The notes: a model not told the origin generated them from the sequence alone. A stretch of DNA of 64,000 nucleotides from a bacterium (GCA_963641945.1 CAVIDW010000003.1:16874-80873); one strand, 5' to 3'. Shown: positions 1,639 to 53,720, numbered from the stretch's first letter. Translations and numbers: made by a program.

Positions 1639-1656
1639 TTTTAATGGAGGGTTTTG

Positions 1657-2271: not shown

Positions 2272-2274
2272 AAT

Positions 2275-33068: not shown

Positions 33069-33680
33069 TTATGCTTTTTGTTCGAAACTTATATTCGCAT
33101 TGATTTTAAATGAATCTGCACTATTAGTGGCGTTAGTATCACTTTCGTCATTCATTTGTTCATTTTCACCTTCATACCATTCAAAATATACTCTAATGGT
33201 AAATGGTTTAAAACTGAAGTTTTCTGTTGTATTATCAAAATCTAATGTGTTTGTTATGCTTGTTCCTTCTAAGTTGATTACTTCTAATTCATCTCCTTCA
33301 GTATAATCATCAGGAATAATAGAGTATTTAGTAATCATCAAATCAGGAATGTTTTCATTTTCTATTGATAGGTTAATTGTATAATTAAATGATACTTCTA
33401 CATTAGACGGATCAATATCGATATCAAAGTGCCCCTTAGATGTTGGTGCAACTGTATTTGATTTGATATTATTATTTGCTTCAATAACAGGTTCAAAACT
33501 TATTTCAGAACTATTACCAGCAGTTATATCATTTTGATTAACCAAGATTTGCCATTTAGCAAATAAAATATCAATATTACCAGTTGTTCCAGATACATAT
33601 CTTGAATAAGTATTGCTCATTAAACACATTGAAATTGAGGCAGAAATTAATAAAAATAGAAAACAAATTTTCTTTGCCAT
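33069..33680 (-). CDS. TasA/camelysin-like secreted protein with SipW-cognate-type signal peptide
   Basis: I prefer the start MAKKICF, which has an AGGAG RBS. The signal ends ..NTYS/RYVSGTT. The beta-rich body ends ..INANISFEQKA, comparable to the TasA C-terminal FSFEATQ. Confidence 0.6.
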   Translation of the reverse strand: MAKKICFLFLLISASISMCLMSNTYSRYVSGTTGNIDILFAKWQILVNQNDITAGNSSEISFEPVIEANNNIKSNTVAPTSKGHFDIDIDPSNVEVSFNYTINLSIENENIPDLMITKYSIIPDDYTEGDELEVINLEGTSITNTLDFDNTTENFSFKPFTIRVYFEWYEGENEQMNDESDTNATNSADSFKINANISFEQKA

Positions 33681-33840
33681 ATAAGTCCCTTTTCTCCTTT
33701 TTTCTAATCTAATTATAAAATCATATGGTTTTGCTCTCAATATTTCGAAATCAATATTACACTAAACTTTACATTAATTTTGAAAAACAAAGTGTAAAAT
33801 TGAAGTTAATCTATATGTAAAACAAAAAACATAATTATGA

Positions 33841-33870
33841 TTGACAATTATTATCTTTTACGTGTATAAT
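33841..33870 (+). promoter_or_regulatory. sigma-A-like promoter for the 33915 gene cluster
   Basis: TTGACA (33841-33846), an 18-nt spacer and TATAAT (33865-33870). Confidence 0.55.
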
Positions 33871-33914
33871 TGTAATGTAAAATAGATAAGAATATTATTA
33901 TAGAGGTTATGACT

Positions 33915-34631
33915 ATGAAGAAAGAAATTACCGTTGGTGTTGATAAAGTTAAAAGAAGAAAAAGAATTAAAAAGATAGCCAAGCTTATCATATTAATATT
34001 ATTTATACTTCTAATTTTACTTTACTTTGTTATGGGTATAATATATAACAATGGAAATTTCAGCATAACGCTTGATAAGAACCTTTATTTTGAAAGAGGA
34101 ATAATCATGTATGATGATCCGACTTACAAAGTATATAGGGAAGAACTACAAGCCCCGGCAGTTGATTATTTTGATAATATATCATATAAATGGTTGCCAG
34201 ATGATATAGATGAAATAGATGGCTCTCATAATGGTAAAAATTATGTTGCTTATACATTTTACGTAGAAAATACAGGTACTGATACATCAGACTACTGGAC
34301 AGAAATAATAATTGACGATGTTGTTAAAAATGTAGATGAAGCCGTAAGAATAAGAATATATAAAAATGGTGAGTATGTAACTTATGCTAAAATTGGTTCT
34401 AATGGTCAACCTGAAAAAAATACAGTTGCATTTGAAAGCAATGATTTAGTTGCAATGAATCATATTGAAAATTTTGGTCCAGGCCAAGTTGACAAATATA
34501 CAATTGTAATGTGGGTTGAAGGAAGCGATCCAGAATGTACAGATAATATTCTTGGGGGAGAAATTAAAGTACATATGGAATTTAATTCAGAATTTGTAGA
34601 AGTTGTAGGAAAAGAGAAGAAAAAAGATTAA
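33915..34631 (+). CDS. membrane-anchored protein sharing the core fold signature of the 36623/38183/39897 family
   Basis: N-terminal Lys-rich segment plus a TM helix. YVAYTFYVENTGT and KYTIVMWVEGSDPECTDNILGGEIKVHMEF parallel YVAFDLFVKNFSG and IRVYIYIEGQDIDNYDL..ISVAFGF in the paralogues. Confidence 0.55.
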   Translation: MKKEITVGVDKVKRRKRIKKIAKLIILILFILLILLYFVMGIIYNNGNFSITLDKNLYFERGIIMYDDPTYKVYREELQAPAVDYFDNISYKWLPDDIDEIDGSHNGKNYVAYTFYVENTGTDTSDYWTEIIIDDVVKNVDEAVRIRIYKNGEYVTYAKIGSNGQPEKNTVAFESNDLVAMNHIENFGPGQVDKYTIVMWVEGSDPECTDNILGGEIKVHMEFNSEFVEVVGKEKKKD

Positions 34632-34647
34632 AAAGGAGAAAAAGAAT

Positions 34648-34785
34648 ATGGAAGAGAGTACAATTAATTTCGATATTTCTAAATTAACACTTAAAGAGTT
34701 AATAGAAGTATATGAAAAAATAAATTTATTTATAAAATACTTAGAAGATAATAGACTAGAACAAGAAGGAGAAAAACATGAATAA
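34648..34785 (+). CDS. 45-aa acidic micro-protein, translationally coupled to the next gene
   Basis: AAAGGAGAA RBS with a 7-nt spacer to the ATG. The stop overlaps the downstream ATG (ATGAATAA). Not in the ORF track. Confidence 0.4.
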   Translation: MEESTINFDISKLTLKELIEVYEKINLFIKYLEDNRLEQEGEKHE

Positions 34786-36400
34786 CTTTTTAGATTTTAT
34801 AAACGAAGATATAGAAGCAAAAAAAACTTTATTATCCTCTATGCCTACAAACAACAAAACAAATGTAAAAAAATATAACGAAAAAATAGACTCGACCATT
34901 GAAACATATAATGAATACAAAGAAAATATAAAAAAATATTTAAAAGCTAAGTCAGAAACATTTGAAGAAAAAGAAAAGAAAGACTCAAAAGATATAGAAT
35001 CATTAAAAAAGAAAGTAAAAGCATTAAAACATTTAGTTGTAATTTTGAATCCATTAAATACATATATAGAAAAATTAGAAATAGATGATTTAATGTTTGA
35101 CATTAAAAACTATTCAAGTATTTCTTTTGATAAATTAAATGAAATATTTAATACTTTAATAGATATATTTGCTTCTGCTGATATAAAACTTGAAAGTGAA
35201 AACTTTAATACAACTTATTATGTTCAAAAATATATGTCAGCATTATTTAAAATAAGAAATCAAAAATCTAAAGATTATAGTGAACTATCAGATACATTTG
35301 AAAAAATATATTGGTTTAATCCAGAAATTATAGAGCATATAGAATTGAATTTTAGAATATTATTAAAGAAAAATGATAAACAATTTAAAATATATATATC
35401 AAAATTAACAAAAAAATTAATGGAAGAATATAATATAGAAGATTACGAAGATGCAAAAAAGAAATATAAAGAAGCGTATAATGAATTAGAAAACTCACAA
35501 AAAGAAGATGTAAATGATCTTATAGATTTAGCAAAAAAAGGTACGATTGATATAAAAAATTATTTTGAGGATAGCAAATATAGAATTTCAACTTATGAAG
35601 CATTAATTATTAATCAGGAAAATAATGATGAGAGTAGATTTTATAAATCACTTGAAAAATTAAAACAAAATGCCTTGGAATATCGCAATTACACAAATTA
35701 CAAAGTGGTTTTTGATAATTTTAAAGAAGAATATCCAGTTACAACAAAAGAATTTGATAGTAGTAAACTAAAAGAATTAGAAACTAGTATTAATGAAAAA
35801 GAAGAAGAATTAGAAAAAATAAATAAAAAGATTTTTGCTAAAGATGGAAAAGAAGAAAAAAAGATTTTTGAATTTGCATCTAAAAAGAATGAAGAATCAT
35901 TAAAAAAATTGAAAATTGAATCTGTTAAAATAGCAAAAGAAATATATGATCTATATCAAGTATATGATAAAGAAAAAATCAAAGAAATGATTACGCCAAA
36001 TATAAGCAGTACAACTTTAATAGATGATGTATTAAAAATATATGCAAGTTTTAATTATTATAGAAAGAATGCTATAGAAAAAGCATTAAAAATTGATAAT
36101 TATAATGAGTTATTAATTGAAGACAAAAAATTTAAAGATTTTGCAGCTAACCCAAATAATATCGTTATAAATGGAATTTATTTATATGAAGAAAGTGATG
36201 TACCTAAAATAATTACAAATAAATATAGATTTGAAAATATAAATGTTCATGAAGATGAAGTATCTGATAATATAGATGCACTTTTAGAAAAAATAAATTT
36301 TGCACTAAGAGTAAATGTTATAAATAATGGTGAGTTAAATGTAGAAAAAATATGGTTTATTAAAGAAGTAGACTCATTATTAAATAATACGAAAAAATAG
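34778..36400 (+). CDS. 540-aa Lys/Glu-rich, predicted cytoplasmic coiled-coil protein, unknown function
   Basis: No signal peptide or TM helix. Strong heptad-like K/E/L content. I recognised no family motif. Confidence 0.55.
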   Translation: MNNFLDFINEDIEAKKTLLSSMPTNNKTNVKKYNEKIDSTIETYNEYKENIKKYLKAKSETFEEKEKKDSKDIESLKKKVKALKHLVVILNPLNTYIEKLEIDDLMFDIKNYSSISFDKLNEIFNTLIDIFASADIKLESENFNTTYYVQKYMSALFKIRNQKSKDYSELSDTFEKIYWFNPEIIEHIELNFRILLKKNDKQFKIYISKLTKKLMEEYNIEDYEDAKKKYKEAYNELENSQKEDVNDLIDLAKKGTIDIKNYFEDSKYRISTYEALIINQENNDESRFYKSLEKLKQNALEYRNYTNYKVVFDNFKEEYPVTTKEFDSSKLKELETSINEKEEELEKINKKIFAKDGKEEKKIFEFASKKNEESLKKLKIESVKIAKEIYDLYQVYDKEKIKEMITPNISSTTLIDDVLKIYASFNYYRKNAIEKALKIDNYNELLIEDKKFKDFAANPNNIVINGIYLYEESDVPKIITNKYRFENINVHEDEVSDNIDALLEKINFALRVNVINNGELNVEKIWFIKEVDSLLNNTKK

Positions 36401-36418
36401 TTTTAAAACTATTTTTTT
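36394..36418 (+). terminator. AT-rich palindromic terminator
   Basis: The AAAATAGTTTT/AAAACTATTTT palindrome overlaps the stop and is followed by a T run. Confidence 0.5.
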
Positions 36419-36467
36419 ATATGTAAAAAAATTAATAACATAATTCTACAAAAATCGATTTTTGGAA

Positions 36468-36496
36468 TTGACTTTTAATTATTCATATAATATAAT
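36468..36496 (+). promoter_or_regulatory. sigma-A-like promoter upstream of the major TasA-like paralogues
   Basis: TTGACT (36468-36473), a 17-nt spacer and TATAAT (36491-36496). It would give a roughly 120-nt leader. Confidence 0.55.
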
Positions 36497-36622
36497 TTAT
36501 ATATAATATGACAGTAAGAATAAAATGACTGTTGTATAATTGTGTAAGTAAAATTAAAAATATTATTCTAGAGAATATTTTTATTTTGCAAATTTAGTTA
36601 GTAAAGGAGAAGGAAAGATAGT

Positions 36623-38107
36623 ATGGCTAAAAAGAACAAAAAATACACAAAAAGAGTAAAGAATCTTGTTGTTATTTGTACACTTAGTTCATTAGTATTT
36701 ATCGTTACAACATTTGCATGGTTTATTGGTATGCGTACTGTTAACGTTTCTACTTTTGATGTATCAATTGCAACTACAGATTCATTATTACTATCATTAG
36801 ATGGTAAAAAATGGGATACTACTGTTTCAATTAACAGTACAAACTACAACGATACAGTAGATACTGTATATGTTGGAAATGCCAATACATGGAGTGATGG
36901 TGGATTAATTCCAATGTCTTCAATTGGCGAGATGGATGCAACAGCATCAAGAATGAAACTTTATCAAAAAGCTAGTTTAACTAAAACAGCAGGTGGCTAT
37001 AGATTAATGGCTAGCCGTGTTGATAATCACACAACGACTGTTGATGGCTTAAATTGGCAATACAATGAAGCAAAAGGATATGTTGCTTTTGACTTATTTG
37101 TTAAAAACTTCTCAGGGGTAGAATATTATACAGAAAATAATGAGGCTAATGAAGAGTCAATTTATTTAACTACTGATTCAGAAGTTAAGGTTGCAGCTGA
37201 TGGAGTAGCAAATACTGGTATTGAAAACTCAGTGAGAATTGCGTTTGCTCAAATTGGTAGAGTAATTGCAACAACAAGTGATCCTACTACAATTACAAGC
37301 ATTACATGTAATGGAGGAGGAAGTGTTACTGGAATTTGCCGTACTGCTCAAATTTGGGAACCAAATGAAGATAAACACGTAGCTGGAGCAATTAGCTATT
37401 ACAATACTTCTTGTAAAAAGAGAACGGGAGATAATGTCTTTACTGATGGAACTTATAGTGGAACATGCGGAACCGTTAATAATGATACAGCATATCCAAC
37501 ATATGCAATTGCTAAAGAAATTGCAGATGGAACGGTTGTTGATGTATATGATGGAGAAAAATATAATGGTTATACAACAACATCAACTGGTGCTGAAGCA
37601 TATTTGAATGCATATGATACATTCACAGATGCTGAAAAAATGGAACAAGGTGTACTTAGAAATGAATTTCTTACTTTAGCACCAAATAGTATTACTAAAA
37701 TTAGAGTTTATATCTATATTGAAGGACAAGATATTGACAACTATGATTTAGCATCTATTGGAAAGAAAATATCAGTTGCATTTGGATTTACTAAAGATAG
37801 ATTTGATTATAGTGAAGATGATGAATATCTTGCTAATGTTGTAGCAAATGATACAACTGCACCAACAATTACAATTATTAGAGATGATTTTGCTGAGGAT
37901 ACATTAACATTAGCTTTAAATGCTACATTTAATGCTCTAGATGGTGTAACTGCAACTGATGCTGAAGAAGGAGATATTACTGCAAGAGTTAGCGTTGTAA
38001 ATAATACTGTTAATACAGCAAAAGCTGGAGATTATATTGTTTCATACATAGTAAGTGACTGGGCAGGAAATTATACACAAAAAGATATTGCTGTCAAAGT
38101 ACAATAA
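36623..38107 (+). CDS. secreted TasA-like family protein with SipW-cognate-type signal and C-terminal bacterial Ig-like (DUF5011-like) domain
   Basis: The signal reads ..IVTTFA/WFIGMRTVNV. Conserved Cys pairs are present, along with IRVYIYIEGQDIDNYDL. The C-terminus (PTITII..LDGVTATDAEEGDIT..AGDYIVSYIVSDWAGN) resembles a DUF5011-type Ig domain. Confidence 0.65.
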   Translation: MAKKNKKYTKRVKNLVVICTLSSLVFIVTTFAWFIGMRTVNVSTFDVSIATTDSLLLSLDGKKWDTTVSINSTNYNDTVDTVYVGNANTWSDGGLIPMSSIGEMDATASRMKLYQKASLTKTAGGYRLMASRVDNHTTTVDGLNWQYNEAKGYVAFDLFVKNFSGVEYYTENNEANEESIYLTTDSEVKVAADGVANTGIENSVRIAFAQIGRVIATTSDPTTITSITCNGGGSVTGICRTAQIWEPNEDKHVAGAISYYNTSCKKRTGDNVFTDGTYSGTCGTVNNDTAYPTYAIAKEIADGTVVDVYDGEKYNGYTTTSTGAEAYLNAYDTFTDAEKMEQGVLRNEFLTLAPNSITKIRVYIYIEGQDIDNYDLASIGKKISVAFGFTKDRFDYSEDDEYLANVVANDTTAPTITIIRDDFAEDTLTLALNATFNALDGVTATDAEEGDITARVSVVNNTVNTAKAGDYIVSYIVSDWAGNYTQKDIAVKVQ

Positions 38108-38131
38108 AAACAATAAATTATAAAATAAATG

Positions 38132-38159
38132 GTAAAGAGTAAATAAAATTACTCTTTAC
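38132..38159 (+). other. 11-bp hairpin between the two tandem paralogues (possible partial terminator/processing site)
   Basis: GTAAAGAGTAA / TTACTCTTTAC with a 6-nt loop and no clear U tract. Confidence 0.4.
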
Positions 38160-38182
38160 TAAAATATATGAAAGGAAAAAAT

Positions 38183-39781
38183 ATGGCAAAAAGAAATAAA
38201 AAACAACAAAGACGTGTCAAAAACCTTGCATTAGTATTTACTTTAACTACAATTGTTTTAGTTACATCTACATTTGCATGGTTTATTGGTATGCGTACTG
38301 TTAATGTTGATGAATTTGATGTTACAATTGCAGCAGTTGATGGATTGTCTCTTTCTTTAAATGGAACTGATTGGACAGAAAAGTTGTCTGTTAGCAAAGA
38401 AGCAGCAAATTATGATGGAAACACTAATGTTTGGGCAGAAAAGGGGCTAATTCCTATGTCTACAATTGGTGCATTAGATGATAATTCATCTACAATGAAA
38501 CTATTCCAAAAAGCAAGTTTAACTAAAACTGATGGTGGTTATAGATTACTTGCTAGCCGTGTAAATAATTATACAGAAACAGATGGAAAATATAATGAAG
38601 GTGATGGATATGTTGCATTTGACTTATTCATTAAAAACCTTTCTGGAGAAGAGTACTATATAGAAGATAATATAGCAAATGAAGAAGCAATTTATTTAAC
38701 AAATGATTCTTCAGTTAAAGTTTCAACAAGTGGTGGAATAGCTGGCACAGGAATTGAAAATTCAGTAAGAGTAGCATTCGCTCAAATTGGTAGAGTAATT
38801 GCAACAACAACTAATGCTGATATTATCAGAGGATTGAAATGTACTGGTGAGGCTACTGAACTTACAGATCCAACAGGAATTTGTCGTACAGCACAAATTT
38901 GGGAACCAAATGATAGAAACCACGTAGCAGGTGCAATCGAATATTATAGTGAATCTTGCAAAACAAGAACTGCAGATGGATATGGAGATACTAAATGTAA
39001 AGCAATTACTGATGGACTTGCATATTCAACATATGCTATATCTGAAGTAATAACATATAAGGATGGAGAAAACTTATTACCAGTTGTAGATGTATATGAT
39101 GGAGCAGATTATAATGGTTATGCGGGTTCAACAAAACTTCAAGCTGTTGATACATTTACAGATAGTGAAAAGTTATTAGCTGGAACTGCTAGACAAGATT
39201 TTATGACATTAGCTCCAAATAGTATTACTAAAGTTAGAGTTTATGTATATATTGAAGGTCAAGATATTGACAACTATGACTTAGCACAAATTGGTAAGAA
39301 GATATCAATTAACTTTGGATTTACTAAACAAAGATTTAATGAAGATGATATAAATTACACTGGTGATAATACTAATGAAGGTGATGGACCATTTGTAGCA
39401 AATGGAGATGGAACTTATAAACAAGCAAATGATACTACTAAACCATACATTGTATTAACTGGTGAAGGCATTACAAATGACACATTAACTATAACTAAAG
39501 GCACTGACTTTAGTACACTTTCAATAACTGCTAAAGCATATGATAAGGTTTCTACATATGAGGAAGGAACAGATGATGAAGGAAATAAAACTTACAATGT
39601 AACAACAACAGTAAATAATGAATTAACATGTGCTGATGCAACAAAAGGTGGAGCTGGATGTATTACTGAATCTGGTACTGTAAATACTGCAGTTGCAGGT
39701 ACTTACCAAGTTGTATACTCAGTTAAAGATACATCTGGAAATCTTGGTACTAAAGTATTAAATGTAGTTGTAAATGAATAG
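38183..39781 (+). CDS. secreted TasA-like family protein, tandem paralogue of 36623, with C-terminal Ig-like domain
   Basis: I prefer the start MAKRNKKQQRRVKNL, which parallels the paralogue's MAKKNKKYTKRVKNL. The signal reads ..VTSTFA/WFIGMRTVNV. The C-terminus reads ..AGTYQVVYSVKDTSGN. Confidence 0.65.
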   Translation: MAKRNKKQQRRVKNLALVFTLTTIVLVTSTFAWFIGMRTVNVDEFDVTIAAVDGLSLSLNGTDWTEKLSVSKEAANYDGNTNVWAEKGLIPMSTIGALDDNSSTMKLFQKASLTKTDGGYRLLASRVNNYTETDGKYNEGDGYVAFDLFIKNLSGEEYYIEDNIANEEAIYLTNDSSVKVSTSGGIAGTGIENSVRVAFAQIGRVIATTTNADIIRGLKCTGEATELTDPTGICRTAQIWEPNDRNHVAGAIEYYSESCKTRTADGYGDTKCKAITDGLAYSTYAISEVITYKDGENLLPVVDVYDGADYNGYAGSTKLQAVDTFTDSEKLLAGTARQDFMTLAPNSITKVRVYVYIEGQDIDNYDLAQIGKKISINFGFTKQRFNEDDINYTGDNTNEGDGPFVANGDGTYKQANDTTKPYIVLTGEGITNDTLTITKGTDFSTLSITAKAYDKVSTYEEGTDDEGNKTYNVTTTVNNELTCADATKGGAGCITESGTVNTAVAGTYQVVYSVKDTSGNLGTKVLNVVVNE

Positions 39782-39845
39782 TAAATACATAAAATCAATT
39801 CAAAATATACTAACTATATGGTTATGTTAGCAATATATAAATATT

Positions 39846-39874
39846 AAAGAATAATCACAAGTTGGTTATTCTTT
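39846..39874 (+). terminator. hairpin terminator (weak U tract)
   Basis: Stem AAAGAATAATC / GGTTATTCTTT (one G-U pair) with a 7-nt loop. Confidence 0.5.
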
Positions 39875-39896
39875 AATTGTTTATAGGAGGCTTTAG

Positions 39897-41012
39897 GTGA
39901 AAAATAAAAAAGATGTCAAAAACAATAATAAAAGCACAAAGCAAAAAAAAATTAAGATATTAAATGATAAAAAAAGAACAAGAATATTGTTTTGCATTAC
40001 AGTACTTCTTACAATCTTGCTAATATCTTCAACATATGCTTGGTTTAAAGCATCTCTTAATGTAAAGGTTAAGTTTATAAATATGAAAGTATCTACAGAT
40101 AGTGGTCTATTTATATCATTAGATGGTGTCAACTTTTCCAGTGAAATAGAAGTATCAAGAGAATCAATTATGGAAGATATTAATGATATTTATCCAAATC
40201 ATACAAATCAATGGGCATCAAGTGGACTTTGGACAGTCTCATCAAATGGAATAGAAAATTCTAATTCAGATAAGTTTAATTTATTTTATGGTGAACTTGG
40301 TAAATATCGTAGTGGAGAGAAAAAAGGCCAAAGATATTTATCTACAATGAAGATAGATGAAAGTAAAAAACAATCATGGAATAGATATATTGCTTTTGAT
40401 ATATTTTTAAAGAATGTAAGTGGTTCACCAAAAAGTGATAATTTATACTTAACTGAAGAGACATATTTTCAATTTGAAGATGGATATTTAGAAGGTTTAG
40501 AAGAAGATGATAGAGTTGAAATGGAAGGAATAATGAATTCTATTAGGCTTGGAATTGTAAGAATAGGTGATACTACTCTTAATGCTGATAAAGACACAAT
40601 TCAAAATTTAAAATGTAATAATAATTGTAAAACTATAATATATGAACCATTTAGTACTTCGCATACAGAAAAATCAATTGAAGATGCTGCTGAATATGGA
40701 ATTACAATGAGTAATGGAGAGTATATTCCAACTTATGGAGTATATAGTGAAGGAATATATTTAAATCATAAGAGTTGTTACTTTAATTCTGGAGTTTCAA
40801 TTGATACAGAACATTTTGCTCTACAAAAAACAATAAAAGATTCAAATTTAGATGATCCAATATTTCAATTACCAAATGGTATAACAAAATTACGTGTATA
40901 TATTTGGTTAGAAGGACAGGATATAGATAGTTTAGAAACACATTCAACAGGTGCTCCTATAGATGTTGGATTAGACTTTATAAAAGACTTATCAGGTTAT
41001 GAAGGATATTAG
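39897..41012 (+). CDS. secreted TasA-like family protein (third paralogue, no Ig tail)
   Basis: GTG start after an AGGAGG RBS. The signal reads ..ISSTYA/WFKASLN. It shares YIAFDIFLKNVSG and LRVYIWLEGQDIDSLE with the paralogues. Confidence 0.6.
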   Translation: MKNKKDVKNNNKSTKQKKIKILNDKKRTRILFCITVLLTILLISSTYAWFKASLNVKVKFINMKVSTDSGLFISLDGVNFSSEIEVSRESIMEDINDIYPNHTNQWASSGLWTVSSNGIENSNSDKFNLFYGELGKYRSGEKKGQRYLSTMKIDESKKQSWNRYIAFDIFLKNVSGSPKSDNLYLTEETYFQFEDGYLEGLEEDDRVEMEGIMNSIRLGIVRIGDTTLNADKDTIQNLKCNNNCKTIIYEPFSTSHTEKSIEDAAEYGITMSNGEYIPTYGVYSEGIYLNHKSCYFNSGVSIDTEHFALQKTIKDSNLDDPIFQLPNGITKLRVYIWLEGQDIDSLETHSTGAPIDVGLDFIKDLSGYEGY

Positions 41013-41030
41013 TAAAGGAAGTGATAAAAA

Positions 41031-44000
41031 TTGACAAGATTAAATTATAAAAAAATTATATATCTTTTAATTACGTTAATTTTTATAATGGGTATTACTA
41101 TTGCTATTCCTTCATTAGCAAGATATAAAAATAGAGTAAACACAGAAATAAATGTATGGGATGGAACTGTAGCAACCAGTTTCAAAAGTGGAGAAGGCAC
41201 AGCTTCATCTCCATATATAATTTCAAATGGTAGTGAACTTGCTTATCTTTCTGATTCATTAAAGGCAAACAATTATGAAGGTATTTACTTTAAAATATCT
41301 AGTGATATTGTTTTAAATGATGGAAAATTTAATTATGAAGATAATAAATACATATATGAAAAAGACAATAATAAATATTATATAAAAGATGATAAATATT
41401 ATAGTGATATTGGATATACAAGCGAAGTTGGCTCATTAAATATTTTAAATTCACTAGAAGGATTTAAAGGTACATTTAATGGAGATTCCCATGTAATATC
41501 AGGATTATATATGTATAATGATGAATCAGCTTTATTTAAAAGTTTAAATGGAAAAGTAGAAAAATTATATATTAAAAATTCTCTTTTAACGGGAAATAAA
41601 GCTGCATCACTAGTAACAAATTCTACTTCATCAATTATAAATGAAATACTATTTGATGGATTTGTTATTAGTAATGCAGAAAGTAAGATAAAAAATGGAA
41701 CAATTTCTATTGATACAATAGAATTAAACAATAATTCAAAGACAATAACTATAAATATAGATGATAGTATAGAAAGTTATAATAATATTAGTTCAATTAC
41801 AGTAAATGGTGACTATAATATAGATACTAATAATGGTTCTGTTTTAATAAACGAAACACCTGTAACTGATAATCATTTTGAAATAACTACAACAAATAAA
41901 TATTTTACAATTACTGCTAGTTCTACAGAAATAACTAATATTGGATTTGATAATGTATCATATGAAATAACTTATAATGATAATATGGCTAGTGGAATAG
42001 CGTTAAACGTTACCAACACTGAACTTACAAATATTATCAATAAAGGAAAAATATATTCTAATAATGTTTCAAGTGGAATAGTTGGAATATTAAATAACTC
42101 AAATTTAACTAATGCTTATAATAATGGAGTAGTAAATACTTTAGGTGGAATAACTTCATATATAACAGGAAGTTCTAGTTTAATTAATGTATATAATACT
42201 TATGAAGAAACATCTTTGATTAATATAATAGAAAATTCAAATTTAAATATAATTGGCTCTTTTAATACATCAAATATTAAACCAATAAATAATAATATTA
42301 ATTCAGTATTAAGTATCCAAGACTCATATATAGTTGATAGTTCTTTAGACAGTACATCTAGTTTTACCATAAAAACGATAGAAGAATTAAAATCAGAAAA
42401 TATGAAGAATATATTCCATGAATATATTTCACTTGATGACTTAAATTCAAATATAGATAATGCTTGGATATATGAAAATGATAGTTATCCACTTTTATTT
42501 AATGATGATATAACTAATGGAATTGCAACTCTTCATATTAAAACATATTCATATGATAATTTTAGTAATGTTTTAGAGACATTTAATTATAAAGATAATG
42601 TTTCATTTGGTATAGAAGATAATGATGAATTAAATCCTAGTAGTAAATATTATTATATTCATAATAGTAATACGCCTCTATCAAAAACAGAACTTGAAAG
42701 CATTGAAAATTGGATAGAATATAATCAAATACAAACAATATCTGAAGAAGGAAATTATATAGTATATGTTAAACTAGTAAATAATAATAAAACATATTAT
42801 ATAAATTCAGATGTATTTGCTATTGATAAAACTATTCCAAGTGTTACATTAACATTAGATAATAATGTATGGAATTCATTAAATACCGAATTAAATACAA
42901 TAGATATAGATGGCGAAAAGGCATTTACAATTGATGCTGTTGACTTACTATCAGGAGTTAAATCAATAAAATATTATTTATCAAAAAATATATTAAGTGA
43001 AACAGAATTAAGTAGTGTAGAGTGGATTACTTATGATGAAAATGCAAAAATTAAAGATTTAGGTAAATATATCATATATGTAAAAGTAAGTGATAAAGTT
43101 TCAAATGAAACAATAATAAATAGTGATTATATAAATTATGATGGATATAAATTAACTATAACATCTGGTAATCATTTGAATAGTAATTTAAATATAACAG
43201 ATAAATCTAAATTAAAATTTAAATTTATATATGATGGAGAAAACAATGTATCTGGAACACATAGTTTAGTTTCAAACACACTATTGCCAAATGGAACAAT
43301 AATAACATTAAATGATCAAAATAAAATATATGAACATATAGTTGATAACATTTCAAACAATTATGGATATGAAACTAATAATTATGCTACATATAATTTT
43401 GTACTATTTAAAGAAAAAAATAAATATAATGATACTTACTATCAAGAAAGTAATAGCGTTGGAGTAGAAAATATAGAAGTTACAATAGACTTTAAAAATA
43501 CAAATTTAACAAATAATTTAGAAAATGTTACATTATCATTAAATATTGGCAATGATAGAAAAACACTACAAAGTAACATTAAAGAATTTAATGTATATAT
43601 AGATAGTGATGCTACACTTGAATTAACATCAACTTATGACAATAAAGAAATAGAATTTAATATAGATTCAACTATAAGTATAGAGTTATCTAGTGGTGTT
43701 AAATATGCTACCAAAGATTCACAATCAGTTTTAGATACAACATATGAAGATAAAATGCAGGGCATTGCAATTAAATTACTTGATAGCAATAATAATATTT
43801 TAGATAAAACATATTTAGAAAAATTAGTATTTACTATAGATGGAATAAATTATACACCAGATAATGATAATATAATAAGAATCCCATTTAGTGATACAAC
43901 ATCATTAACAACAAAATCATTATTAATTACAACATCAAAAAGTGATTTAAATCTAACTGAAGATAATATAAATATAGAAATATCTAATTATATCTCATAT

Positions 44001-44444
44001 GATGGAAAGTACTATAATGAATTAAATAACAGCATTATAATTCCAGTTGTAATAACAAATAATAATAAAACAACAACTGATTATGAATTTAGTATTACAG
44101 TAGCAGATGAATCAAGAATAATAAATAAGAAAGATGAAAGTACTACATTAGATTTTGATATTGTTACCAAAAACATAATAAATCCTACAATTAAAGTTTC
44201 ATTATATAAAAAAGATAAATTAACAGCATATGATCAAACATACAATATAGTTGACTTAAAAGAATATACAACATCCACATTACAATCTTTTACTACAAAT
44301 GTATATTTGACAGATATAAATGATACATTTACTTTAAATTTAATACCTAGTAAATTTGAAAGCAATGGATATAAATTTGTATTTGATTTATATAGTGATA
44401 ATGTAAAAATAAATACTATAGAAAAGTATTTTATTGCTAAGTGA
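41031..44444 (+). CDS. 1137-aa Asn/Ile-rich secreted giant protein with SipW-type signal, beta-helix-like N-terminal region and tandem Ig-like modules
   Basis: TTG start after an AGGAAG RBS. The signal reads ..AIPSLA/RYKNRVN. GEGTASSPYIISNGSELAYL..YFKISSDIVLNDG is typical of passenger/beta-helix adhesins. Two repeated ..EL.S(I/V)EW(I).Y..I...G.YI(V/I)YVK modules follow. Confidence 0.6.
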   Translation: MTRLNYKKIIYLLITLIFIMGITIAIPSLARYKNRVNTEINVWDGTVATSFKSGEGTASSPYIISNGSELAYLSDSLKANNYEGIYFKISSDIVLNDGKFNYEDNKYIYEKDNNKYYIKDDKYYSDIGYTSEVGSLNILNSLEGFKGTFNGDSHVISGLYMYNDESALFKSLNGKVEKLYIKNSLLTGNKAASLVTNSTSSIINEILFDGFVISNAESKIKNGTISIDTIELNNNSKTITINIDDSIESYNNISSITVNGDYNIDTNNGSVLINETPVTDNHFEITTTNKYFTITASSTEITNIGFDNVSYEITYNDNMASGIALNVTNTELTNIINKGKIYSNNVSSGIVGILNNSNLTNAYNNGVVNTLGGITSYITGSSSLINVYNTYEETSLINIIENSNLNIIGSFNTSNIKPINNNINSVLSIQDSYIVDSSLDSTSSFTIKTIEELKSENMKNIFHEYISLDDLNSNIDNAWIYENDSYPLLFNDDITNGIATLHIKTYSYDNFSNVLETFNYKDNVSFGIEDNDELNPSSKYYYIHNSNTPLSKTELESIENWIEYNQIQTISEEGNYIVYVKLVNNNKTYYINSDVFAIDKTIPSVTLTLDNNVWNSLNTELNTIDIDGEKAFTIDAVDLLSGVKSIKYYLSKNILSETELSSVEWITYDENAKIKDLGKYIIYVKVSDKVSNETIINSDYINYDGYKLTITSGNHLNSNLNITDKSKLKFKFIYDGENNVSGTHSLVSNTLLPNGTIITLNDQNKIYEHIVDNISNNYGYETNNYATYNFVLFKEKNKYNDTYYQESNSVGVENIEVTIDFKNTNLTNNLENVTLSLNIGNDRKTLQSNIKEFNVYIDSDATLELTSTYDNKEIEFNIDSTISIELSSGVKYATKDSQSVLDTTYEDKMQGIAIKLLDSNNNILDKTYLEKLVFTIDGINYTPDNDNIIRIPFSDTTSLTTKSLLITTSKSDLNLTEDNINIEISNYISYDGKYYNELNNSIIIPVVITNNNKTTTDYEFSITVADESRIINKKDESTTLDFDIVTKNIINPTIKVSLYKKDKLTAYDQTYNIVDLKEYTTSTLQSFTTNVYLTDINDTFTLNLIPSKFESNGYKFVFDLYSDNVKINTIEKYFIAK

Positions 44445-44456
44445 GGATGTGCGTAA

Positions 44457-44993
44457 ATGAAATATAAAATATTAAAATTATTAATAATTGCAGCACTAGC
44501 AGTATTTGGACTAGGTATTACATATTCAATATTTAGTTCAAATACACTAGCTTCTGGTGATCAAAAAATAGCAAAATTTATTTTTAATGCTGAAGAAGTA
44601 GATAAACTTTCTATCCCTATTACCGACTTAAAACCAGGATATACAAATGATTTTGATTTTTCAGTTAGTAATAGTAAGGACGAAAAAATAAGTGATGTAA
44701 CAATAGAATATCAAATGACTATAAAAACATTTCATTTGGTACCATTAAATATAGAATTATATAAAGTAGATGGAGAAAGTGAAACATTACTTATAACATG
44801 TGATGAAACATTTTCAAGAAATGAAGATAATGAACTTGTATGTAATCTTCCAATAGAAGAATTAGATTATCAAAAAGAAATCAAAAATAATTATAGATTG
44901 AAAATATCTTTCCCAGAAGAATATAATGATGAAGTATATTCTAATTTAGTAGATTATATTGATATTGAAATAAAAAGTTGGCAAAAGGTATAG
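44457..44993 (+). CDS. small TasA/camelysin-like secreted protein
   Basis: The signal reads ..GLGITYS/IFSSNT. LKPGYTNDFDFSVSN parallels TasA LKPGDKLTKDFQFEN. Confidence 0.6.
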   Translation: MKYKILKLLIIAALAVFGLGITYSIFSSNTLASGDQKIAKFIFNAEEVDKLSIPITDLKPGYTNDFDFSVSNSKDEKISDVTIEYQMTIKTFHLVPLNIELYKVDGESETLLITCDETFSRNEDNELVCNLPIEELDYQKEIKNNYRLKISFPEEYNDEVYSNLVDYIDIEIKSWQKV

Positions 44994-45004
44994 AAAGGAA
45001 TATT

Positions 45005-45880
45005 ATGAAAAAGAAAAAAAGTTTATTATTAATTCTAATCATATTAGCTAGTTTCTTATTCATAAGTTCTATTTCCTTAGCTAAATATGTATCAAATAAA
45101 GTATGGAATCAATATTTAAAATCACAAGGTTTTTACTTTGAAAGCGAAAATTTATCAACTACAGGTAAGACAACAGTAAATACTTTATGGAATGGTTCAC
45201 AAGTAGATTTAGTTATACAAAATAATAATTTGAATCAAATAACGGATACTGATATAGAATATGAAATGACTTGTAGTATAGAAGGTGAGCAAAATGATTC
45301 ATTAAAATGTTTATCAAATGGAAAAGATACATATATTGGTACATTATCTGCTACAAGTACATGTGTAAATGATTCTAATATTGATACAAGCACCTTAACT
45401 AAAACAGAATGTGAATTAGGAGGATATACTTGGCAAAATATGATTGCTAAGAATGACTTATATTTTGAAATAGTTAAAACAGATGAATCGTATGAATTAA
45501 GTGATGTAACAGTAAATGTAACCATTACGAGTAAAAAGCCATACAAAAAAACATTAAAAGGAACGTATATATTAAAGTATAATAATATTGAAGATGGAAT
45601 AGTAACATCATCTTATAAAAATTATACTGATTATAATAGATTAACTATAACAAATTCATATGATACAAATAAATGTATAAATATTTCATATGATGGGAAT
45701 ACAAAAACATTAGATGTTGATTCTAGTCTAGCTAAAGGTTCTAATCAAGAAGGCAATATTAATGAAATGGAATTTATTATAAAAGGTAAAACTAGTGAAA
45801 GTTTTATAGTATATGATAGTAGTGAAGAATTAACTGATAACTTTGTTATTAGTGTTATAGATGAATGTAAAGGTAGTTGA
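45005..45880 (+). CDS. secreted Cys-containing protein with SipW-type signal
   Basis: ATG at 45005 (MKKKKSLLL..). The signal reads ..SSISLA/KYVSNKV. Several Cys residues sit in the mature part. Confidence 0.55.
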   Translation: MKKKKSLLLILIILASFLFISSISLAKYVSNKVWNQYLKSQGFYFESENLSTTGKTTVNTLWNGSQVDLVIQNNNLNQITDTDIEYEMTCSIEGEQNDSLKCLSNGKDTYIGTLSATSTCVNDSNIDTSTLTKTECELGGYTWQNMIAKNDLYFEIVKTDESYELSDVTVNVTITSKKPYKKTLKGTYILKYNNIEDGIVTSSYKNYTDYNRLTITNSYDTNKCINISYDGNTKTLDVDSSLAKGSNQEGNINEMEFIIKGKTSESFIVYDSSEELTDNFVISVIDECKGS

Positions 45881-45922
45881 TATTAATTTTCAACTGTGAT
45901 AATATAGAATAGGTGGTAATGT

Positions 45923-46447
45923 ATGAAAGTATTAAATGCAATAAAAAAATTTTTTCTAGGAGTTTTAACATTTGTGTTCTTTGTTTACGCGATTGCAATG
46001 ACATTTCTATTATTAAATTTTAATGATTACGGAGTTACAGAAGTTGGGGATACATCTGTAATTATAATTAAAGATAAAATATCTAATGAAAATTATAAAA
46101 AAGGTGACATTGTACTTGTAGAAAATAAGCAAATGAAGAATATACAAGTAGGAGATGAGTTATTTGCTTATAGAATTGATTCTAAAGGTGCTGCAAATAT
46201 TGAAATAGGAACAGTTGGTCAAGTACATTTAGATAGCGAAGCAGTTACTTTTGAAAATGGAGACTCTTACTCATATGAATTCTTAATCGGAGAAGGAACT
46301 AAAACTATTGGTAGTTTTGGAACATTCTTGGGACTAGTCGAATCTAAATGGGGATTCTTATTCACAGTACTAGTACCAAGTTTCATATTCTTTGTATATA
46401 ATCTATATGCATTAATCGTAGAAATAAAATACGGAGATGAAGAATAA
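45923..46447 (+). CDS. SipW-like bitopic membrane protein lacking recognisable catalytic motifs (possible pseudo-peptidase)
   Basis: SipW-like size and topology (N-terminal and C-terminal TM helices) and a KGDIVLV..VGDELFAY beta-core pattern. GSMxP and THR(I/V) boxes are absent. Confidence 0.4.
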   Translation: MKVLNAIKKFFLGVLTFVFFVYAIAMTFLLLNFNDYGVTEVGDTSVIIIKDKISNENYKKGDIVLVENKQMKNIQVGDELFAYRIDSKGAANIEIGTVGQVHLDSEAVTFENGDSYSYEFLIGEGTKTIGSFGTFLGLVESKWGFLFTVLVPSFIFFVYNLYALIVEIKYGDEE

Positions 46448-46989: not shown

Positions 46990-47039
46990 TAACAAAATAT
47001 AATGCAAATTTTCTTTATTTTAATTAATGGAGTGAAAAA

Positions 47040-47921: not shown

Positions 47922-47929
47922 GAGTTAAA

Positions 47930-50020: not shown

Positions 50021-52144
50021 ATGAAAAAAATGAATAAAGTTGTTGAAAAAGTAGCAAATGTATCATTAAATATACTAATCGGAATATTTGCAATCATATT
50101 GCTTATATTTATATATAAAGGATTTCAAGTTAAAATTTTAAAGAATGATTTTAATTTCTTTGGATATACAATGTTTGAAGTTCAAACAGGAAGTATGAAA
50201 AGTTATATTAATGCTGGAGATTGGGTAGTAGTAAAACTTACAAAGGATGTAGATATTAATGATGTCATTACATTTAAGCAAGATGGAAATAATATTACAC
50301 ATAGGGTAATTGAAATATATAATGGAACCTATATTACCAAAGGGGATGCTAATAATTCGAAAGATGACCCAATAGATCAAAGTCAAATAATTGGAAAGGT
50401 AGTGAAAGTTCTTAGCGGATTTGGAATACTGCGAAAAACAATATTTAATCCAGCAGTAATAATTGCTTTAATAATAACTTTGTTATTATTTAATTTAACT
50501 TTTAAGAATGATGTGGAAAGTATGAAAAAGAAAAAACAAATAAGAATTATAGTAAATAAGATAATAAATCTCTTTAAAAATATTAAGAAAGATGAATTTA
50601 GTGATTTGGATAAATTTGATGAATCTAAGAAAGAAAGAATAGAAGAAGAAAAAATCATCAAGCAAGAAATACTTGATGAGGGTGACATTCAAAAAGAGCC
50701 AAAGAAAGAAGAACTAAGTAAAACATCAATGTTTAGAGTTGTTAGTGTTAGAAAAGAAGGACATAAACCTAAAGAAGAATCAAAAATAGAAGAAAAAATT
50801 GAAGCAGATGAAGAAATAATTGAATCAGAAAAAACTCCTGAGCAAATTGAAGAAGAATTAAGTAAAACTTCTATGTTTAGAATAATTAAAGCTGATACAA
50901 GTGATATAGACAAAAAAATAAAAAAGATAATTAAAAAAGAAAAAAAGGAAAATAAAGATAATAACGTCTATACAGTAACTCTAGAAGCAGAAAAAGTAGT
51001 TAAAAAACTTGATAAAAATATGGGAAAAAACGAAAGAAGTGAAAAGAGTGAATCTATAAATTCAAATGATTTAAAAATCAAAACATATAATACAAAAGCT
51101 AAGACAATAATAGAAAAAGCAATTAAAGTAAAAAAACTAGAAATAAATCAAGTAATCGATGTTATATTAGAAGGTCAAAAATCATATGTAATTAAATCAA
51201 GTTTTAGAACAGACTTTATAGATGCATATATTACTAGTAAATATTATTTGGCAGAAAATTCAAATAGTATTGGTGATGTAAAAGAATCTATCAGTGCTTT
51301 AAGTAAAAAACTAACAAAGAAGAACATTAGAGATGAAAAACAAAAGTTAATTATTAAAACATATGAAGATTTAATGCTTTTATATTCAAATATTGATAAA
51401 TACAATAAAGATGAAGAAAATAGAATAACTTTTTATCAAAAGACATTAAGAAAATATAGTAATTGGGATATAGAATATATTAATTATTTAGTTTATAGAA
51501 TTATTGAAATACAAAATAAATGTTTAGATGAAATGGAAGAAAGTTATAAAAAACTAGAAACAGATACATTTGAAATAACATTTAATAAAATATCAAATAA
51601 TAAAGATTTATATTCAGCAGTATTAAATCATAATATATCATTTAGTAGTGTATATAGCGATTATATAGTTGATAAAACATATAATGAAGGAATCGTATCA
51701 GAAGATAAAGTAGTAGTTCTTATAACATTATTATCAAGTAGAATTGCAAAAGATATAACGAACTATGATTATAATAAAAAATATGTAGTTTATATGCCAA
51801 GCGGATTATATGAAAAAGAAAAGAAAATGGCTGGATTATTAAAATTAATTGAAGATGAATATGCTAAAAATCATATCTATATATTATTAGATGCTAATAC
51901 GTTGATATTGAACAAGAAAATAACAACGAATCTTAAAAAACAAGGATATAATTTTGCAGTTGTATTAAATGATGAAAGCAAAATTAATGAAAAAAACATA
52001 GGTGCATTGTATTTAGCAGATTATATATTTGTAAGTAAAGATATTAAAAACATATCAAATATAATTGGAGAAGTACCTAATGAACTTTTAGAAAAAATTG
52101 TAAAAGAAAATATAAAAAAATTGGGTGATTTTGGAGGCGAATAA
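50021..52144 (+). CDS. SipW-type (ER-type S26B) signal peptidase fused to a ~540-aa cytoplasmic extension
   Basis: The N-terminal ~160 aa comprise a TM helix, QTGSMKS (Ser box), ITHRVIE (His box), TKGDANNSKDDP (Asp box) and a second TM helix. A K/E-rich linker with duplicated EELSKTSMFR(V/I) follows, then a globular domain of about 330 aa of unknown family. Confidence 0.7.
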   Translation: MKKMNKVVEKVANVSLNILIGIFAIILLIFIYKGFQVKILKNDFNFFGYTMFEVQTGSMKSYINAGDWVVVKLTKDVDINDVITFKQDGNNITHRVIEIYNGTYITKGDANNSKDDPIDQSQIIGKVVKVLSGFGILRKTIFNPAVIIALIITLLLFNLTFKNDVESMKKKKQIRIIVNKIINLFKNIKKDEFSDLDKFDESKKERIEEEKIIKQEILDEGDIQKEPKKEELSKTSMFRVVSVRKEGHKPKEESKIEEKIEADEEIIESEKTPEQIEEELSKTSMFRIIKADTSDIDKKIKKIIKKEKKENKDNNVYTVTLEAEKVVKKLDKNMGKNERSEKSESINSNDLKIKTYNTKAKTIIEKAIKVKKLEINQVIDVILEGQKSYVIKSSFRTDFIDAYITSKYYLAENSNSIGDVKESISALSKKLTKKNIRDEKQKLIIKTYEDLMLLYSNIDKYNKDEENRITFYQKTLRKYSNWDIEYINYLVYRIIEIQNKCLDEMEESYKKLETDTFEITFNKISNNKDLYSAVLNHNISFSSVYSDYIVDKTYNEGIVSEDKVVVLITLLSSRIAKDITNYDYNKKYVVYMPSGLYEKEKKMAGLLKLIEDEYAKNHIYILLDANTLILNKKITTNLKKQGYNFAVVLNDESKINEKNIGALYLADYIFVSKDIKNISNIIGEVPNELLEKIVKENIKKLGDFGGE

Positions 52145-52146
52145 TT

Positions 52147-53709
52147 ATGAATACATTCTTACGATTTTTTTACGAATTTATATCAATATTTTTTGATGGA
52201 GTAGAAAAAATTGTAAAAGGCTTTATAAATGGCTTTATGCAAATGTTTAATTATGGAGATTATAAACAAATAATAAGCAATTATAAAGGAAGTTTTAGTG
52301 GAATAGAATGGGTATTTGTAGGATTAGGTGTGGCATTTTTTGTTCTCCTAGTTGGAGCAATTTTAGTACTTATATTTATGGGTATTAGAAAAATATTTAG
52401 ACTTAGAAAAGAGAAATTAAATCAAGATGAATTATTAGATGAAATTGGGGAACTAAATGATAAAGTTAAGCAATTGATGAAAGAAAAAGATGAATTAATG
52501 GCCATGAAAGTTTCTCAATTAGGATTAAATCCAAAAGATGAGCCAACAGAAGAACAAAAAGAAGAAAATAAAAATGCTGATGGTTATACTGAAGAAGAAC
52601 AAAATACAGAAGACCTTGATGAAGCTGGAAATGTTCGTTTTCCTAAACTTGTTAGAATCGATCAAGAATATAAGAATTATAAAATTAAAAATTATAATAA
52701 CAACTTCTCTTTAGAAGAATTAATAGATAACTTTAGATGTTTTGCTGCAAGTCAACTTCATTTATATTATGAAGCACATTTGTTAAGAGCATTCATTGGA
52801 GGTCTTGCTTGTGGTAAATTAATTATCTTACAAGGTATTTCTGGTACAGGTAAAACATCTTTAGCATATGCTTGGGGTAAATTTGTTAAAAATGATTCAT
52901 GCGTAGCATCAGTTCAACCATCATGGAGAGATAAAACTGAATTACTTGGATACTTTAATGAATTTACTAAAAAGTTTAACGAGTCAAACGTTTTAGAAGA
53001 GTTATACTTAGCCGGATATGATGATAATGTTCATACAATAATACTTGATGAAATGAATATAGCCAGAGTTGAATATTATTTTGCAGAAATGCTATCTATA
53101 TTAGAATTACCTCAAAGAAGTGAATGGCAGATTGAACTTGTATCTACAATATGGCCAGATGATCCAAAAAGGTTGGATAAAGGAAAACTTCATTTACCTG
53201 GAAACTTATGGTATATTGGAACAATCAATAATGATGACTCAACATTTATGGTAACAGATAAAGTATACGATAGAGCAATGCCTATTGATATAAATAAAAA
53301 GATAGATCCATTTGAATGTAGAGAACAAGAAGCAGTTGCTATAAACTCAAGTTATTTAGAAAGTTTATTTAAACAAGCATTCGAAGATCATAAATTATCA
53401 CAAAAATCAATTAAAATGGTTGAAGAAATTGATAATTATGTTATCGCTCATTTTAGAGTTGCATTTGGTAATCGTATTATGAAACAATTAAGAGACTTTA
53501 CAGCAGTTTATGTAGCTAGTGGTGGAGATGAAGTAGAAGCAATAGACTATTTTCTAGCACAAAAAGTATTAAGAAAATTTGACCAATTAAATATTGCTCA
53601 AATAAGAGATGAAATAGATGGTTTTATTAAATATCTTGATGCATCAACTGGTAAAGGCAAAATGAAAGAATGTATTGCATTTTTAGAAAGATTAAAGAAA
53701 TCAGTTTAG
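52147..53709 (+). CDS. membrane-anchored McrB-family AAA+ GTPase homologue
   Basis: TM helix (WVFVGLGVAFFVLLVGAILVLIFMGI) followed by RKIFRLRKEK, then a coiled coil. The core is McrB-like: ILQGISGTGKTS, VQPSWRDKTELLGYF, IILDEMNIARVEYYFAEMLSILE, NLWYIGTINNDDS (NxxD), YDRAMPIDI. Confidence 0.75.
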   Translation: MNTFLRFFYEFISIFFDGVEKIVKGFINGFMQMFNYGDYKQIISNYKGSFSGIEWVFVGLGVAFFVLLVGAILVLIFMGIRKIFRLRKEKLNQDELLDEIGELNDKVKQLMKEKDELMAMKVSQLGLNPKDEPTEEQKEENKNADGYTEEEQNTEDLDEAGNVRFPKLVRIDQEYKNYKIKNYNNNFSLEELIDNFRCFAASQLHLYYEAHLLRAFIGGLACGKLIILQGISGTGKTSLAYAWGKFVKNDSCVASVQPSWRDKTELLGYFNEFTKKFNESNVLEELYLAGYDDNVHTIILDEMNIARVEYYFAEMLSILELPQRSEWQIELVSTIWPDDPKRLDKGKLHLPGNLWYIGTINNDDSTFMVTDKVYDRAMPIDINKKIDPFECREQEAVAINSSYLESLFKQAFEDHKLSQKSIKMVEEIDNYVIAHFRVAFGNRIMKQLRDFTAVYVASGGDEVEAIDYFLAQKVLRKFDQLNIAQIRDEIDGFIKYLDASTGKGKMKECIAFLERLKKSV

Positions 53710-53720
53710 GAGTGAATTAA

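Follow-up and report, generated by a model that had tools for sequence, protein, structure and literature searches.

TasA-type fibres are the model for the biofilm scaffolds of Gram-positive bacteria and are thought to need only Sec, the signal peptidase SipW and one accessory protein. TasA signal peptides, whose cleavage is established, end in a junction of the form T-aromatic-A/x-aromatic (the slash marks the cut). A gene cluster encoding eight exported proteins with junctions of this form was analysed in a stretch of 64,000 nucleotides of bacterial DNA, taken as one strand (GCA_963641945.1 CAVIDW010000003.1:16874-80873; called the window below, with all coordinates based on it). The cluster occupies positions 33069-56688 and probably represents a new and much more complex form of SipW-dependent surface-polymer system.

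The tapA-sipW-tasA operon of Bacillus subtilis (TasA fibres; PDB 8AUR and 5OF1) resembles the cluster in that a dedicated signal peptidase of the archaeal/endoplasmic reticulum type is encoded together with its substrates. LepB is reported to cleave poorly at an aromatic P2' residue, and TasA, with Phe at P2', to require SipW (PMC10269814). The donor strand of TasA comprises residues 28-38, with the P2' residue F29 buried in the next subunit, and TapA, whose body is not that of TasA, also provides a donor strand (PMC9674648). The donor-strand-like N-terminus of TapA on a different body can be compared with proteins G and B of the cluster (letters as in Table 1), and peptidase gene M directly followed by gene N is a sipW-tasA-like pairing. 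In contrast to B. subtilis, the cluster has eight predicted substrates instead of two, and two apparently active peptidases plus a dead one, one of them fused to a cytoplasmic domain of ~550 amino acids. It adds a membrane AAA+ protein, a DUF2357 protein and a cytoplasmic protein of 540 amino acids, and its proteins D, E and F show no detectable sequence similarity to TasA, nor the D core any Foldseek similarity.

The sipW-bsaA-bsaB-bsaC operon of C. perfringens includes a non-TasA substrate, and multi-paralogue BsaA/TasA operons are known, for which heteropolymers formed by donor-strand exchange have been proposed (PMC11580942). Because such operons and BsaC have already been described, the general idea of multi-substrate SipW operons is not new. 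The cluster shares with the C. perfringens operon a SipW gene accompanied by several substrates, one of them there being non-TasA, but it has no vWA protein, sortase or LPxTG partner, and its 14-gene scale and cytoplasmic/ATPase module have no counterpart there. Work on archaeal bundling pili (AbpA/AbpX) describes very divergent beta-sandwich subunits that follow the same N-terminal donor-strand principle (PMC9245690, bioRxiv 10.64898/2026.01.04.697558); Foldseek comparison of the D core with the PDB returned no similarity to these pili. New in the present cluster are the core of the D family, J as a pseudo-peptidase, a peptidase fused to a cytoplasmic domain and the McrB-like AAA+ module with its membrane anchor.

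The G+C content of the window is about 25%, and a contig of the metagenome-assembled genome (MAG) GCA_963651815.1 is almost identical to it. Relatives of the locus were found in MAGs of uncultured 'Bacilli', 'Mollicutes' and 'Tenericutes' from gut, rumen and digesters, and the host is an uncultured low-GC gut-type bacterium. With the D family as probe, 71 loci were retrieved and all window proteins were mapped onto them. A gene order of 14 genes recurs in these loci, B-D(n)-F-C-G-H-I-J-L-AAA-DUF2357-M-N-A(-), of which the window order is a rotation, with A upstream of B and N at the far end. When counts were restricted to loci whose contig shows the stretch concerned, G-H was adjacent in 36/36, H-I in 34/34 and I-J in 30/30 loci, followed by J-L (15/21), L-AAA (8/8), AAA-DUF2357 (5/5), DUF2357-M (5/5), M-N (4/4) and N-A (4/5, with A on the opposite strand). 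It is thus well supported by gene order that 33069-56688 forms one conserved 14-gene system, interrupted by an ABC-transporter insertion at 46567-49912. The original prediction, made from the window sequence, had ended the locus at 46447; the mapping over 71 loci places the end of the conserved unit at 56688. Its description of the locus as greatly expanded is borne out by the same gene order, which is much larger than tapA-sipW-tasA.

All eight open reading frames (ORFs) for which junctions had been quoted were recovered by ORF calls and translations, the one at 33069 lying on the minus strand with a probable start at 33680. Each protein has one N-terminal hydrophobic segment, spanning 18-23 residues, and directly after it a junction of the TasA/camelysin type, in which positions -3 and -1 hold small residues, position -2 is aromatic or Leu and P2' is aromatic (Table 1); this assignment is well supported. 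A scan for a basic N-terminus and a 15-residue hydrophobic stretch followed directly by [ST][FYLW][ASG].[FYW], a pattern written post hoc, picked 8 of the 72 window ORFs of at least 100 amino acids, all in the cluster and none outside it. The same pattern was present in 117/117 TasA-family proteins retrieved with B. subtilis TasA (query checked against PDB 8AUR), mostly as TWA/AF, in agreement with the SipW-cognate type that had been proposed.

The junction is also conserved in related genomes, in orthologues of every one of the eight genes. TYA/WF was found in 48/56 D-type orthologues and TYS/RY or TYS/KY in 15/15 A-type orthologues, while the H-type orthologues (n=35) carry mostly TYS/xF, with AYS/FF in two. 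Among 94 diverse representatives of the A family (mean identity 30%), the P2' Tyr is one of six invariant columns, and the -3/-1 small-residue rule is held by all eight proteins and their orthologues. NCBIfam scans (E<=0.1) matched no SipW-cognate signal-peptide family for any of the eight.

Two of the proteins encoded in the cluster, L and M, pass the TIGR02228 cut-off of 51.85 bits for signal peptidases of the SipW/archaeal type (S26B), with 66.8 and 82.8 bits, respectively. In the alignment both keep the GSM serine and a His instead of Lys (TGSMKS...ITHR in L, TGSMQP...ITHQ in M), N- and C-terminal transmembrane segments were found in both, and the best PDB match of the L family is Sec11. 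A Pfam scan of the L family gave no informative domain for its cytoplasmic extension. J scores 16.8 bits with TIGR02228 and is homologous to L and M (hhalign probability 96%, E 3.8e-9, 159 columns). It has no GSM serine, His or GDxN box and carries KDKISN and IEIGT at the Ser and His positions; its Ser is not conserved, being Ala in one of the closest loci (L001). Judged by these residues, J is a catalytically dead peptidase homologue. A separate housekeeping peptidase of the LepB type is encoded at window position 10310. L, M and J were not mentioned in the original prediction, whose implied SipW dependence is reinforced by two TIGR02228-passing peptidases encoded within this conserved unit. 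These sequence features give good support to the view that the eight proteins serve as substrates for the SipW-type peptidases of the cluster.

Table 1. Features of the 33069-56688 cluster, in window coordinates (aa, amino acids; TM, transmembrane segment; a slash in a junction marks the predicted cut)
Feature	Position	Strand	Signal junction	Description
A	33069..33680	-	TYS/RYVSGTT	Small predicted secreted protein, 203 aa from internal ATG (ORF extends to TTG at 33740)
Promoter-like site	33841..33870	+		Upstream of B; perfect sigma-70-type consensus TTGACA-18-TATAAT; consensus match only
B	33909..34631	+		Membrane-anchored short relative of the D/E/F core
C	34778..36400	+		Conserved 540-aa protein, no TM, no known relatives, predicted cytoplasmic
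Promoter-like site	36468..36496	+		TTGACT-17-TATAAT in the 222-nt gap before D; consensus match only
D	36623..38107	+	TFA/WFIGMRT	494 aa; beta-rich core of ~370 aa; C-terminal immunoglobulin (Ig)-like DUF5011 domain
E	38168..39781	+	TFA/WFIGMRT	D paralogue, 51% identity; probable start 38183
F	39897..41012	+	TYA/WFKASLN	Divergent D/E paralogue, 27-29% identity; without Ig-like domain
G	41031..44444	+	SLA/RYKNRVN	Predicted secreted, 1137 aa; GGL[IV]G (GLUG-like) and Ig-like repeats; adhesin-like
H	44457..44993	+	TYS/IFSSNT	178 aa; sole component with detectable camelysin/TasA similarity
I	44978..45880	+	SLA/KYVSNKV	Predicted secreted, ~291 aa, probable start 45005; conserved cysteines; no known family
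J	45923..46447	+		Apparently catalytically dead SipW-type signal-peptidase homologue, two TMs
L	50021..52144	+		SipW/archaeal-type signal peptidase (residues 1-155), fused to a ~550-aa cytoplasmic extension
AAA+	52147..53709	+		Membrane-anchored (TM 62-80), McrB-like; 62-73% identical across loci
DUF2357 protein	53721..54842	+		McrC N-terminal-like, no TM
M	54852..55424	+		SipW/archaeal-type signal peptidase, 190 aa, TGSMQP ... ITHQ
N	55441..56688	+	TLA/WFAYSGL	Predicted secreted, 415 aa; directly after M; no known family

Genes of the D/E/F type occur in 2-7 tandem copies per locus, and F is related to D with an hhalign probability of 100%. More than 1,800 D homologues were found at E<=0.001, and the best 120 of them, 49-100% identical to D, are annotated only as hypothetical or DUF5011 proteins. 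The family has four conserved cysteines, and its members are still 55-60% identical between distant MAGs. A strong AAGGAG ribosome-binding site lies between the promoter-like site at 36468..36496 and D. The region as a whole contains no more promoter-like sites than expected from shuffled sequence. An AlphaFold model of full-length D (pLDDT, the predicted local distance difference test, 83) matched the PDB in Foldseek by its C-terminal Ig-like domain alone, and for this reason the D core, residues 33-405, was modelled separately (pLDDT 86; predicted template modelling score 0.89). In the core model the mature N-terminus, WFIGMRT (seven residues), is not packed against the rest (pLDDT ~50), and eight of the first ten mature positions are at least 90% conserved in the D family. 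In the full-length model a helix continues through the junction (residues 2-38).

None of the eight exported proteins has a recognised wall anchor, and the only membrane anchor is that of B. Its transmembrane segment at 27-45 has a hydrophobicity of 3.4, compared to 1.7-2.8 in the eight, and is followed by no small-x-small junction. Mature B gave an hhalign probability of 55% over 91 columns with D and 42% with F, the B ectodomain aligning to the C-terminal half of the D/F core; motifs shared by B and D, read by eye, are YVAYTFYVENTG / YVAFDLFVKNFSG and MWVEGSD...IKVHMEF / YIYIEGQD...ISVAFGF. A D-type gene follows B in 50/56 cases. The membrane-anchored relative that had been proposed at 33915 corresponds to this ORF at 33909 and is retained, as a relative of the major proteins, on the strength of the alignment and the missing junction.

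Three loci (L033, L035 and L029) carry up to seven tandem D/E-type genes in D-E-D-E-D-E-F alternation with a single B before them (6244-18862 in L033), which suggests that the D-E pair has been amplified as a unit. In the window, the gap between D and E contains a hairpin with an 11-bp stem at 38132-38159; it has no T-run on the + strand and so is not a canonical terminator, and it might stabilise the mRNA or act as an attenuator downstream of D.

Among the remaining exported proteins, H shares with camelysin/CalY (PF12389, Peptidase_M73) the junction GxTYS/xFxS, an LKPGD..F.F.N motif and a C-terminal ...IEIKSWQ. PF12389 was matched (E<=0.1) by 17/33 H orthologues, with a best E-value of 3.6e-6, covering only the first ~90 residues, signal peptide included; the window copy reached 16.6 bits, under the gathering cut-off of 22.5. 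Aligned with the TasA family by hhalign, H gave 92% with the signal peptide and 73% over 33 columns with the mature region only, the latter spanning an LKPGD..F.F.N.G motif. No PF12389 match was obtained for I (0/29), for A and N (0/19) or for A representatives (0/94), and the homologues of D and N have no PF12389 on record. For the small camelysin-like subunits that had been proposed, such similarity, and a weak one, was seen in H only.

With signal peptides included, hhalign also gave high values between families (H-I 96%, A-I 90%, G-I 83%, F-N 93%). These values were not taken as evidence that the folds are shared: nearly all of the signal was gone when mature regions only were compared, so that the values are attributed to similarity of signal peptide and junction. 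Mature A, I, N and G have no significant similarity to H or D, and Pfam scans of the I, A, N and G families gave no informative domain. The A family is large and uncharacterised (989 clusters at 50% identity, E<=1e-3), with the junction TY[AS]/[KR]Y. None of the 672 homologues of N has a Pfam domain on record, and N matched the TasA profile at motif level only (6%); deeper N and A alignments gave no link to TasA, H or D. G has an OmpL47-type Ig-like domain at 629-694 (E 2e-6, below the cut-off) and SGGLVG/SGGLIG repeats in the family consensus as read by eye, and profile comparison among the C-terminal domains of G, N and I revealed no relationships.

On the cytoplasmic side, C was found in 51/71 loci, usually between F and G, and gave no consistent Pfam match and no PDB match. 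Of all cluster proteins the AAA+ protein is the best conserved, and its N-terminal membrane anchor is conserved too. It matched McrB in the PDB (6hz4, E 6e-5) and the PADLOC model PDC-M26A (E 3.7e-37), and scored 23.8 bits with the NCBIfam McrB model, whose cut-off is 637; by these scores it is related to McrB but is no McrB equivalog. As in McrBC, which pairs the AAA+ GTPase McrB with McrC, the AAA+ domain aligns to McrB and the neighbouring gene has the McrC-type DUF2357. Unlike in McrBC, a DNA-binding domain is replaced in the AAA+ protein by a membrane anchor and a coiled-coil N-terminus, the partner has no evident nuclease motif (no clear D..(D/E)xK among the invariant columns, by eye), and the pair sits between two signal-peptidase genes. 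L, C, B, J and the DUF2357 protein had no match in PADLOC, and profile comparison among the L C-terminal region, C, the AAA+ N-terminal region and DUF2357 revealed no relationships. No literature was found on PDC-M26, or on a system of this kind in RF39/RFN20/Mollicutes-type lineages.

By analogy with the TasA-type systems, the cluster would build a multi-subunit, SipW-processing-dependent polymer at the cell surface, held together by donation of N-terminal strands; we give this interpretation about an even chance. L and/or M would cut after A/S and expose W-F... on D, E, F and N, and [KR]-Y... or x-F... on G, I, A and H. The new N-terminal strand would then insert into the beta-sandwich of a neighbour to form a fibre, as in TasA, BsaA and archaeal AbpA. 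D, E and F could be the bulk subunits, in view of their 2-7 tandem copies, own promoter-like site and strong ribosome-binding site, with B as base or nucleator, in effect a small D core that stays uncleaved on its membrane anchor. G would be a TapA-like starter or an adhesive cap, its donor-type N-terminus being placed on a large GLUG/Ig-like body, with H, I, A and N as minor subunits. J may bind the junction and leave it uncut, and the cytoplasmic extension of L, the membrane AAA+ protein with its DUF2357 partner and C might together form a cytoplasmic control or energy module. The fibre model is suggested by the junction shared with TasA, by a segment that is strongly conserved although the monomer model leaves it unpacked, by bulk proteins that lack their own anchor and are encoded beside a membrane-anchored mini-paralogue, and by G, which shares only the donor-type N-terminus, as TapA does.

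Several results weigh against the fibre. For the D core, even the best Foldseek match in the PDB was not significant (E 0.26, TM-score below 0.2), TasA was not among the 50 PDB matches listed for it, and BFVD gave no significant match either, although remote jelly-roll similarity with large insertions can escape Foldseek. PDB sequence searches with D, H and N as single sequences and with the D- and H-family profiles found neither TasA nor another match to the core domains; the H-family profile did not match even mature TasA, and profile-profile comparison of mature D, F, B, A, I, N and G with TasA was null, at 0.2-19% probability. A TasA-type beta-sandwich was accordingly not seen in the mature domain of D, the one protein modelled. 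The original prediction had implied a TasA-like fold for the major paralogues, and neither sequence similarity nor the confident core model agrees with it; it had also proposed comparing AlphaFold models with TasA and had named models lacking the jelly-roll as the outcome that would speak against it, and this is what was obtained for the main subunits, at the sensitivity of Foldseek. The AAA+ protein, the DUF2357 protein and C are left unexplained by the analogy, because TasA systems, to our knowledge, need no ATPase. The model draws on analogy and indirect features, and we infer cleavage, polymer and fibre here from genes and models.

The missing TasA-like match of the D core would suit another interpretation, in which the eight are SipW substrates but form no donor-strand fibres: D, E and F would build an S-layer-like coat or act as independent adhesins or binding proteins, the junction would reflect the peptidase requirement only, and B would be a separate membrane protein. 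Surface proteins in general typically have Ig-like domains such as the C-terminal DUF5011, the identity of D across distant MAGs and its four cysteines also suit a lattice protein, and the SipW-associated BsaC is a non-fibre vWA protein. However, mature D, E and F contain no wall- or membrane-binding module, conservation extends 8-10 residues beyond the cut in an unpacked segment, which is more than a peptidase normally reads, and B is a truncated D core encoded next to D; this interpretation is judged somewhat unlikely. Two catalytically intact SipW-type peptidases conserved in the cluster argue against the possibility that the hydrophobic segments stay uncleaved and the proteins are type II signal-anchored surface proteins, with AWF/[KR]Y serving as a membrane-interface or partner-binding element, for example for J. 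The small -3/-1 residues kept in all eight and in their orthologues also speak for cleavage, as does the true anchor of B, which is far more hydrophobic and has no motif; TasA signal peptides share the form and are cleaved. The helix that spans the junction in the full-length D model, the 18-23-residue length of the hydrophobic spans and a conserved, non-catalytic J that could bind without cutting are the features that an uncleaved anchor would explain, and we consider it highly improbable.

For the AAA+/DUF2357 pair (52147-54842), a McrBC-type defence module merely embedded in the cluster has to be weighed, given that the best matches of the AAA+ protein are McrB and the PADLOC candidate PDC-M26A and that DUF2357 is the McrC-type N-terminal domain. 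Such a module is quite unlikely, disfavoured because of the fixed position of the pair, which lies between L and M wherever this stretch is visible (8/8, 5/5 and 5/5 for the successive adjacencies) in loci only ~50-60% identical in D; defence islands are not usually so stable in position. The conserved membrane anchor of the AAA+ protein, its rank as the most conserved protein of the cluster and a partner without clear nuclease motif by eye point in the same direction. Assignments as type IV pilin-like proteins, sortase-assembled pilins or spore appendages were rejected: no G/FTLIE-type prepilin site is present, the cluster has no LPxTG or sortase, and no matching domains were found.

Beyond the SipW-dependent polymer, the cluster could encode an undescribed appendage machinery with a new-fold D, SipW-type processing together with the pseudo-peptidase J as a junction-binding assembly factor, and energy-dependent assembly, gating or retraction through the L extension and the AAA+/McrC-like partner. 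We regard this as unlikely; if true, the machinery would be found widely among uncultured Bacilli with reduced genomes, in 'Mollicutes-like' lineages of gut, rumen and digesters. We know of no TasA-type or other Gram-positive fibre system with energy-dependent assembly, gating or retraction. As a polymer, the cluster would be a far more elaborate version of the TasA type, with subunits of many classes, a base anchored in the membrane, and a dead peptidase and membrane ATPase as further components. The cluster occurs in a large group of uncultured Bacilli from gut, rumen and digesters, about whose surface biology very little has been described. With no annotation beyond its Ig-like domain and a confident model without known fold match, the D family offers a concrete structural target, and the junction motif a simple means to list SipW substrates in metagenomes.

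The insertion at 46567-49912 lies between J and L and is common only to the two closest loci (L001 and L002). It encodes a small secreted protein of 140 amino acids with an ordinary VKA/A signal peptide, a membrane protein, an ATP-binding cassette (ABC) ATPase (PF00005) and two further proteins with multiple transmembrane segments. The insertion is lineage-specific, possibly a cassette of the bacteriocin or immunity type. In the near-identical public contig (L072), N runs and a short foreign-looking stretch lie inside gene C (8735-8770 and 9094-9137), because of which the public gene calls break C into pieces; a genuine split of C was rejected, the N runs belonging to the stored copy and being no difference between genomes.

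Some features elsewhere in the window were also recorded. A 118-amino-acid ORF at 31735-32091 resembles the C-terminal zinc-ribbon part of a serine recombinase (PF13408, from the precomputed matches of the public contig) and is probably a mobile-element remnant, located just upstream of an rbgA-like GTPase gene and the cluster. At 28946-31435 a lipoprotein-like protein (LAGC) of 829 amino acids is encoded, with collagen-like GKDGxDG repeats near its N-terminus and a C-terminal GDSL/SGNH hydrolase domain (Pfam). Directly following the arginine deiminase and ornithine carbamoyltransferase genes, the 794-amino-acid ORF at 20480-22864 appears, by eye, to be a fusion of a carbamate kinase (N-terminal ~310 amino acids) and a transporter-like domain with multiple transmembrane segments. 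After a mutS-like gene, three consecutive ORFs at 1654-3499 encode acidic, by eye helical-looking proteins of 192-220 amino acids, which may be paralogues.

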